Source: Isurus oxyrinchus (Eukaryota). From it: a stretch of DNA of 64,000 nt. The position numbers and the translations under genes are program-made. Numbering within the stretch: position 1 is the stretch's first letter; each line of letters starts with the position of its first letter. The stretch lies in assembly GCA_026770705.1 (NCBI GenBank), contig JANJGN010000026.1, forward strand, positions 29,946,001-30,010,000, read 5' to 3'. Below are positions 18,792 to 19,012 of this stretch, in pieces. The notes under the pieces were generated by a model. That model worked only from the letters and a program-made list of their open reading frames with translations. It did no database searches and was not told where the DNA came from.

Positions 18792-18858
18792 GGATTTTAT
18801 ACTGACTTGTAACACTGTGCACAGTGATATAGAGCATGGAAAGAGCTGTACAAAAACC
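18792..18858 (+). other. Precise 12/23 RSS signal joint
   Basis: GGATTTTAT-12-CACTGTG|CACAGTG-23-ACAAAAACC with no intervening base. Confidence 0.92.
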
Positions 18859-19012
18859 TGAACATGGTGGGATTACAGACACACAGTGATACAGAACACG
18901 GAGAGAGCTGTACAGAAACCTGAACATGGTGGGATTACAGACACACAGTGATACAGAGCATGGAAAGAGCTCTACAAAAACCTGAACATGGTGGGATTAC
19001 CGACACACAGTG
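18820..19012 (+). repeat. 62-bp tandem array of 23-RSSs
   Basis: CACAGTG at 18820, 18882, 18944 and 19006; the first three have a 23-bp spacer and ACA(A/G)AAACC. Confidence 0.92.

Follow-up and report, generated by a model that had tools for sequence, protein, structure and literature searches.

Antigen-receptor V segments normally carry one RSS. In the window analyzed here, a 64,000-nucleotide stretch of the 5-Gb Isurus oxyrinchus genome (G000:C26:29,946,001-30,010,000) containing NAR-TCR cassettes, the leaderless supporting V is followed by a head-to-tail array of complete 23-RSSs, and one such array stands behind no V at all. The locus thus raises the question of what the additional signals are for, and of how an array could come to lie directly against the signal of another segment. 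The array is a real, family-specific RSS minisatellite. Our preferred reading, which we consider probable, is that only the V-adjacent copy of the supporting-V 23-RSS is conserved while the others drift, and that the array at 18820 was fused to a D 12-RSS by an old germline RAG deletion.

The NAR-TCR cassettes of the window

NAR-TCR is a doubly rearranging TCR-delta of cartilaginous fish, for which Criscitiello et al. 2006 is reportedly the primary paper. Cassettes in the window follow the order leader and NAR-type V, D, J, intron, leaderless supporting V (Table 1). The NAR-type V of cassette 2 (9554-9835) has a leader exon, its top solved-structure matches are mostly VNAR (E 6e-19), and its translation contains both RKECQSL, with the a-b loop Cys, and DFFRQ, in which the Trp of the WYRK motif is missing. 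The supporting V at 29 kb is a V-set domain by Pfam with a Cys in CDR1 (SGICQY); it is leaderless, with the J intron and a splice acceptor on its 5' side. Structure matching returned generic antibody V matches only, and the TCR-delta designation of this segment is a putative one drawn from its context. The available text of PMC1845163 describes the upstream V of NAR-TCR as IgNAR-V-related, with a leader, an a-b loop Cys and no WYRK Trp, and the supporting TCR-delta V as a segment with no leader and a Cys in CDR1; double rearrangement is described in the available parts of PMC5931798, PMC6795676 and PMC12227049.

Table 1. Positions of the cassette parts, arrays and joints in the window
Position	Strand	Feature	Remark
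10189-13936	+	Unjoined cassette 2: 12-RSS, D (10217-10233), J, intron, supporting V, one 23-RSS, 11 linker bases	
13581-13886	+	Supporting V of cassette 2, internal stop	
17977-18479	+	Leader, NAR-type V exon (18166-18441, frameshifted) and 22-spacer RSS (18442)	Upstream half of the joined cassette
18792-18819	-	12-spacer RSS; where the cassette is intact, it lies 5' of the NAR-TCR D	Followed by an 11-20-base D in 27/30 paralogous loci
18813-18826		Exact heptamer-to-heptamer signal joint, 12-RSS with 23-RSS	Without gain or loss of a base
18820-19005	+	Three full 62-bp units, left as an orphan by the loss of a supporting TCR-delta V	83% like the 29-kb array
19006-19018	+	Fourth, partial unit: heptamer and 6 spacer bases	
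19019-19422	+	3' flank typical of a supporting V	72% identical to 28636-29228
29040-29653	-	Open leaderless supporting V, Cys in CDR1 (29348-29653), with five-unit array (29040-29347)	
55477-56090	-	Recent, near-identical duplicate of the 29-kb V and array (array 55477-55784)	
33541-33608, 37390-37457, 59978-60045, 63827-63894	-	Germline V-D-J-joined NAR V	Same kind: L131-L140

It should be noted that positions 24936-37563 are a 99.5% copy of 51372-64000 (at least 12.6 kb). The arrays at 29 and 55 kb, which differ at 1 of 460 bases, both sit in this duplicate and are for this reason treated as one observation. Together with a further duplicated pair (22372-24338 and 49421-51374), this copy reflects recent duplication or possibly an assembly duplicate, and more close copies of the 29-kb V lie at 30.03 and 30.05 Mb of the contig. 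The NAR V RSSs at 3423, 9835 and 18442 have a 22-bp spacer instead of one of 23 bp, and a lone near-perfect 23-RSS with another spacer lies on the minus strand at 2506-2544, with no obvious gene segment.

Anatomy and distribution of the arrays

The sequence-only reading of this DNA had described a 62-bp unit consisting of heptamer, 23-bp spacer, nonamer and 23-bp linker, with three full copies in the array under study. The analysis bears this out: units start at 18820, 18882 and 18944, and TRF assigns the array 3.2 copies with 91% matches. The assignment of the arrays to the supporting-V family was likewise correct. Units 1 and 3 are consensus-perfect, in agreement with the claim that perfect copies occur, and unit 2 has one nonamer mismatch. 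The window as a whole contains 11 23-RSSs with at most one mismatch, compared with none in 50 order-2 Markov simulations. The approximately five copies reported after each minus-strand supporting V are five full units and a remnant in each case, the linker of the first unit being 11 rather than 23 bp long. Cassette 2 does retain the start of an array ahead of a repeat element, i.e., one full RSS (13887) and 11 linker bases up to the junction at 13936. The element had been labeled a LINE, and we take it to be one from the CR1/L2 ORF1-like motifs in its ORFs, although a Pfam search of two LINE-like ORF pieces gave a match for neither. The array at 18820 has no V in front of it and starts at a heptamer-to-heptamer fusion with a 12-RSS.

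The 62-bp period is close to six helical turns, so that full units would all be presented on the same helical face; given that units of 50-65 bp also occur, this phasing is probably incidental. Two accounts of the linker were considered and rejected, namely derivation from the 3' end of the V (shuffle p = 0.5) and a reverse-strand 23-RSS formed by linker and heptamer, in which the nonamer, by reading, faces the wrong way.

A genome-wide search for a perfect 23-RSS followed by a heptamer within 10-24 bases returned 73 matches (control, 0), all belonging to one unit family and located on C26:23-39 Mb and eight smaller contigs. Parsing of 75 records (L001-L072 and three window pieces), 10 of which overlapped and were dropped, yielded 65 arrays, 56 of them distinct; with 40/124 and 40/113 candidates scored in the searches, the set represents at least 65 loci, the units in it cannot be counted as independent, and haplotypes may be among the unplaced contigs. 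The 65 arrays contain 1-10 full units (mean 4.1). As in a neutral minisatellite, copy number is variable and unrelated to gene status (mean 3.9 units behind open Vs versus 4.2 behind broken ones, p = 0.41), and in 6/39 open V genes there is a single complete unit. Identity of units within arrays (86.8%) is on a par with that between arrays (86.4%), which suggests an old expansion with little current homogenization. Twelve loci of the neighboring V family were read: a single RSS with another spacer was present in 8/8 intact copies where found, and the other four comprise one deletion fusion to an array remnant, one truncated copy and two with no match.

Several rearranged relatives deserve mention. 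At G000:C26:25.27 Mb (L075/L119), a V of another family is fused to an array remnant by a deletion after its second framework. A clade of supporting Vs (L007, L008, L014-L017, L022, L061) has lost the stretch that begins directly behind the first Cys and extends into the first spacer, the first heptamer included; arrays of 3-6 units are left. The germline-joined NAR Vs, considered in connection with longer arrays, form one clade. One contig of 153 bases, from what was guessed to be an RNA run, extends over array units and was not used as evidence.

The reading frame of the 29-kb V stops at CAG TGA in the first heptamer, as had been claimed, and the same stop is found in 31/39 open supporting Vs. 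Six of the remaining open Vs have a G after the heptamer, one is a frame-shifted row and one is mis-anchored. L062-L069 and the RSS at 13887 form a subfamily in which the first heptamer is followed by a G and the V frame runs on without a stop at this point. In L067 and L069 the frame is open through unit 1, and the second heptamers are weak; unit 2, if used, would add about 20 residues to CDR3.

Conservation of proximal and distal signals

The arrays allow the V-adjacent (proximal) unit to be compared with the distal units behind it. Six units around an insertion (L041, L044) and two joint-adjacent units were excluded from both classes. Deviations from the majority base affect 1.5% of heptamer and nonamer sites and 8.3% of spacer and linker sites in 41 distinct proximal units, whereas in 128 distinct distal units the corresponding values are 7.0% and 8.0%. 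As mismatch counts, the proximal signals have 10/654 against 138/1658 in spacer plus linker (CpG columns out; ratio 0.18, locus bootstrap 0.06-0.31), or a ratio of 0.19 after correction for base composition. Parsimony on unit trees gives 0.56 changes per signal column versus 1.75 (ratio 0.32), and perfect RSSs number 33/41 where 10.4 are expected. The V-adjacent copy of the array is, judging from these substitution patterns, under purifying selection.

The sequence-only reading had proposed to ask whether heptamer and nonamer are more conserved than the linker, and for the distal units of this genome they are not: the mismatch counts are 141/2022 in the signals versus 438/5486 in spacer plus linker (ratio 0.87, locus bootstrap 0.72-1.02, p = 0.16; 0.87 also after base-composition correction), and the trees give 5.38 versus 5.16 changes per column (ratio 1.04). 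Perfect distal RSSs number 33/128, with 33.7 expected from neutral decay, and thus need no selection to explain them. Open Vs and dead loci have similar distal ratios (0.87 and 0.85), and perfect units make up 24% of 112 and 33% of 60 distal units, respectively. In the sequences compared, the distal signals show uniform decay across the unit, as for neutral slippage.

Some observations run against simple drift. The raw distal ratio is slightly below 1 and falls to 0.77 without the last units (p = 0.057), and indels are rarer in distal spacers (7/128) than in linkers (34/121), where they are mostly a few shared alleles. A conserved backup role for unit 2 was considered and dropped, as its raw-count ratio of 0.63 (p = 0.02) becomes 0.84 on the tree (p = 0.61). 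Unit 2 shares the derived bases of its own unit 1 no more often than those of other loci (8.5% versus 9.4%), so that recent copying from unit 1 is unsupported. A private-mutation test involved few events, 7 and 15 in distal units.

RAG recruitment, decoy action and serial rearrangement, the uses suggested for the array by the sequence-only reading, predict conserved distal signals; the uniform decay found here is among the outcomes that had been named beforehand as refuting them. Serial use, in which a distal join, non-productive by virtue of the heptamer stop, would come first and be edited by a proximal one, is mechanically possible under the 12/23 rule. The frequency of the first-heptamer stop (31/39) accords with such an order of events, and 77/128 distal units look plausible as cleavage sites. 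Nevertheless, decoys under selection ought to be conserved and harmful ones eliminated, and since the distal signals are neither, we hold a decoy or serial role to be highly improbable. Another possibility is that the extra RSSs form a weakly selected RAG landing pad through which the promoterless supporting V is used more often; a few good copies, whichever they are, would suffice, and each one taken alone would hence seem almost neutral. Confinement of the array to the supporting-V family (73/73 tandem matches and a control of 0, the neighboring V family having a single RSS), the raw distal ratio of 0.77-0.87, and the retention of a plausible distal RSS in 30/33 live arrays with distal units are what one would expect of it. 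However, permutation gives 28.3 for these 30 of 33, dead loci fare equally well (16/16 versus 15.3), the tree-based ratio is 1.04, and open Vs with a single unit exist; we regard the landing pad as rather unlikely. RAG may use distal units whether they are selected or not, and the extra RSSs themselves are probably no adaptation.

The joint at 18819/18820 and other scars

In V(D)J chemistry, coding flanks that lie between two signals are excised, and the signal joint stays on the chromosome. The fusion at 18819/18820 obeys the 12/23 rule, with a 12-spacer RSS on the minus strand and a 23-spacer RSS on the plus strand. The 12-RSS meets an array with a supporting-V flank, which means that D, J, intron and supporting V are missing at the joint; in cassette 2 the stretch of this kind, from D to RSS, is 3670 bases long. 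Among 30 paralogous loci read, the D 12-RSS is followed by a D (11-20 bases) in 27 and by an array in 2, and 1 is misaligned; in both joined loci the fusion lies at the heptamer edge. Two search patterns applied genome-wide found exact signal joints only in the window and in a copy on C242. A signal joint is defined as an exact fusion of RSSs in the available part of PMC2193153.

Identity with the C242 copy is 88.5% over 3.6 kb (flank, 87% over 3 kb), and one base within the joined heptamer of that copy is altered. Moreover, a 288-base contig labeled as a second species bridges the joint, matching 18753-18877 with 7 differences in 125 bases and no gap, and then skips two units; it is the only bridging contig among 28 of 698 matches listed and comes from 1 of 4 runs. 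Other second-species contigs among the matches listed carry arrays behind supporting-V ends as well. Because both a diverged paralog and one second-species contig carry it, the joint is likely to be older than both the duplication and the species split, and is likely to reflect an old germline RAG event. The number of full units after the joint is three in the window, six in the C242 copy and one in the second-species contig; unit number thus changes without a V.

We turn to how the joint may have formed. The reciprocal V-D coding joint, sought with a strict pattern, gave 0 matches (a decayed joint could be missed), which favors deletion over inversion. Loss of the D followed by a deletion at 7 bases of microhomology was set aside, as by reasoning it needs two steps and a 12/12 join. 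The nearest relatives of the joint-array units are a mix of proximal and distal, and the closest 3' flanks are 81-86% identical, with no intact sister array to tell which unit was cut. On our preferred reading of a deletional origin, the RSS would have been duplicated in an ancestral supporting V, copy number would have been altered by unequal crossing-over or slippage, and arrays would have spread by cassette duplication. RAG would then have paired the D 5' 12-RSS with one array 23-RSS. A segment of about 3.7 kb or more, with D, J, the intron and the supporting V, would have been cut out in this step while the chromosome retained the signal joint, and the stranded NAR V presumably decayed thereafter.

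The suggestion that the array may explain the RAG scars of this locus holds for one of them, the signal joint, in which it is a partner; the joined V-D-J and V-D segments use NAR V, D and J signals instead. Germline V-D-J-joined NAR Vs gave 13 pattern matches genome-wide, 12 with one common junction and four in the window. In the joined NAR Vs that were read, leader codon 4 is a stop in 10/10, and the V-D-J exon is open in the 8 without an internal deletion. On the minus strand at 40900-41420, a NAR V with an intact leader is germline-joined to D only, with weak D and J signals after it and no sign of a supporting V downstream. Germline RAG joining is documented at shark Ig loci in the available parts of PMC2193156 and PMC2193153. 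The 11-bp linker at 29297-29308 (minus strand) and in 14 other units reflects a blunt 12-bp deletion with no microhomology, which joins the edge of a cryptic inverted heptamer (GTG) to the next heptamer. It is a possible cryptic signal joint of single origin; all 15 units precede the same unit type, so that the deletion counts as one event.

This deletion is the one lead that connects RAG with the interior of the arrays. Germline RAG cuts within the array might drive its turnover, repair between copies adding or deleting units and making scars. Consistent with this, intact arrays begin exactly at the RAG cut site, one array sits in a signal joint, the blunt 12-bp deletion runs from cryptic heptamer edge to heptamer, and the repeat-element junction of cassette 2 (13936) and its paralogs falls at the same base as the deletion edge. 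Yet the deletion is a single event noticed post hoc and its cryptic RSS lacks a good nonamer, the repeat-element junction has 3 bases of microhomology with the internal repeat of the element, most other indels lie in A, G or AC runs, and there are only 2 exact signal joints genome-wide; in our opinion, such turnover is quite unlikely. The broader proposal, that the arrays are RAG-driven germline fragile sites, cut both at the array and at cryptic linker heptamers and repaired in ways that regenerate arrays and delete or fuse cassettes, strikes us as simply unlikely. If it were true, one process would have left two fossils, the signal joint and the blunt 12-bp deletion, and the recombinase would have produced the repeat as a by-product that renews itself. 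That the joint is an assembly error, or a somatic product that entered the assembly with lymphocyte DNA, we consider barely credible. In favor of such an origin, no bridging contig among the 28 of 698 matches listed comes from the first organism; against it stand two copies of the joint 11-12% apart, one of them mutated inside the joint, and a bridging contig under another species label with 7 differences in 125 bases.

Comparison with known systems

A V family with up to ten RSSs is a natural experiment, in which a comparison of proximal with distal copies reveals the RSS bases that are under selection; from thymic junctions one would learn whether RAG, on approach from the D side, halts at the first RSS that it encounters. 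Ordinary minisatellites (VNTRs) consist of head-to-tail units, vary in copy number and decay uniformly. The 62-bp array has all three properties and differs in that its unit holds a whole RAG site and its first copy is under apparent purifying selection. The ends of RAG/Transib transposons, as covered in the available part of PMC2193153, share the RSS-like heptamer and nonamer; unlike them, the units described here are direct rather than inverted and bracket no cargo, and the exact RSS fusion is a mark of V(D)J joining.

NAR-TCR provides the closest match, with a leader and NAR-type V, D, J, a leaderless supporting V, the CDR1 Cys and a 23-RSS, but the available text of PMC1845163, PMC5931798, PMC6795676 and PMC12227049 mentions neither repeated supporting-V RSSs nor germline joints in cassettes. 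A literature search likewise found no RSS arrays and no germline signal joints in shark TCR loci; for both, an earlier mention in Criscitiello 2006, Ott 2021 or supplements is possible.

The inherited signal joint provides direct sequence evidence of germline RAG-type recombination at a TCR locus. The germline-joined shark Ig genes (Lee et al. 2000, PMC2193156; PMC2193153) are similar in being inherited RAG-type products that were later duplicated with their cluster. As far as the available parts of these papers go, the Ig events are coding joints and one hybrid joint, and the 2000 commentary (PMC2193153) treats germline signal joints only as a postulated event, whereas the joint described here is an exact signal joint in a TCR locus. 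It suggests that the two NAR-TCR rearrangement stages can cross-pair: unlike the shark Ig joints, it crosses stages of rearrangement, uniting the signal of a NAR D with that of a supporting V.
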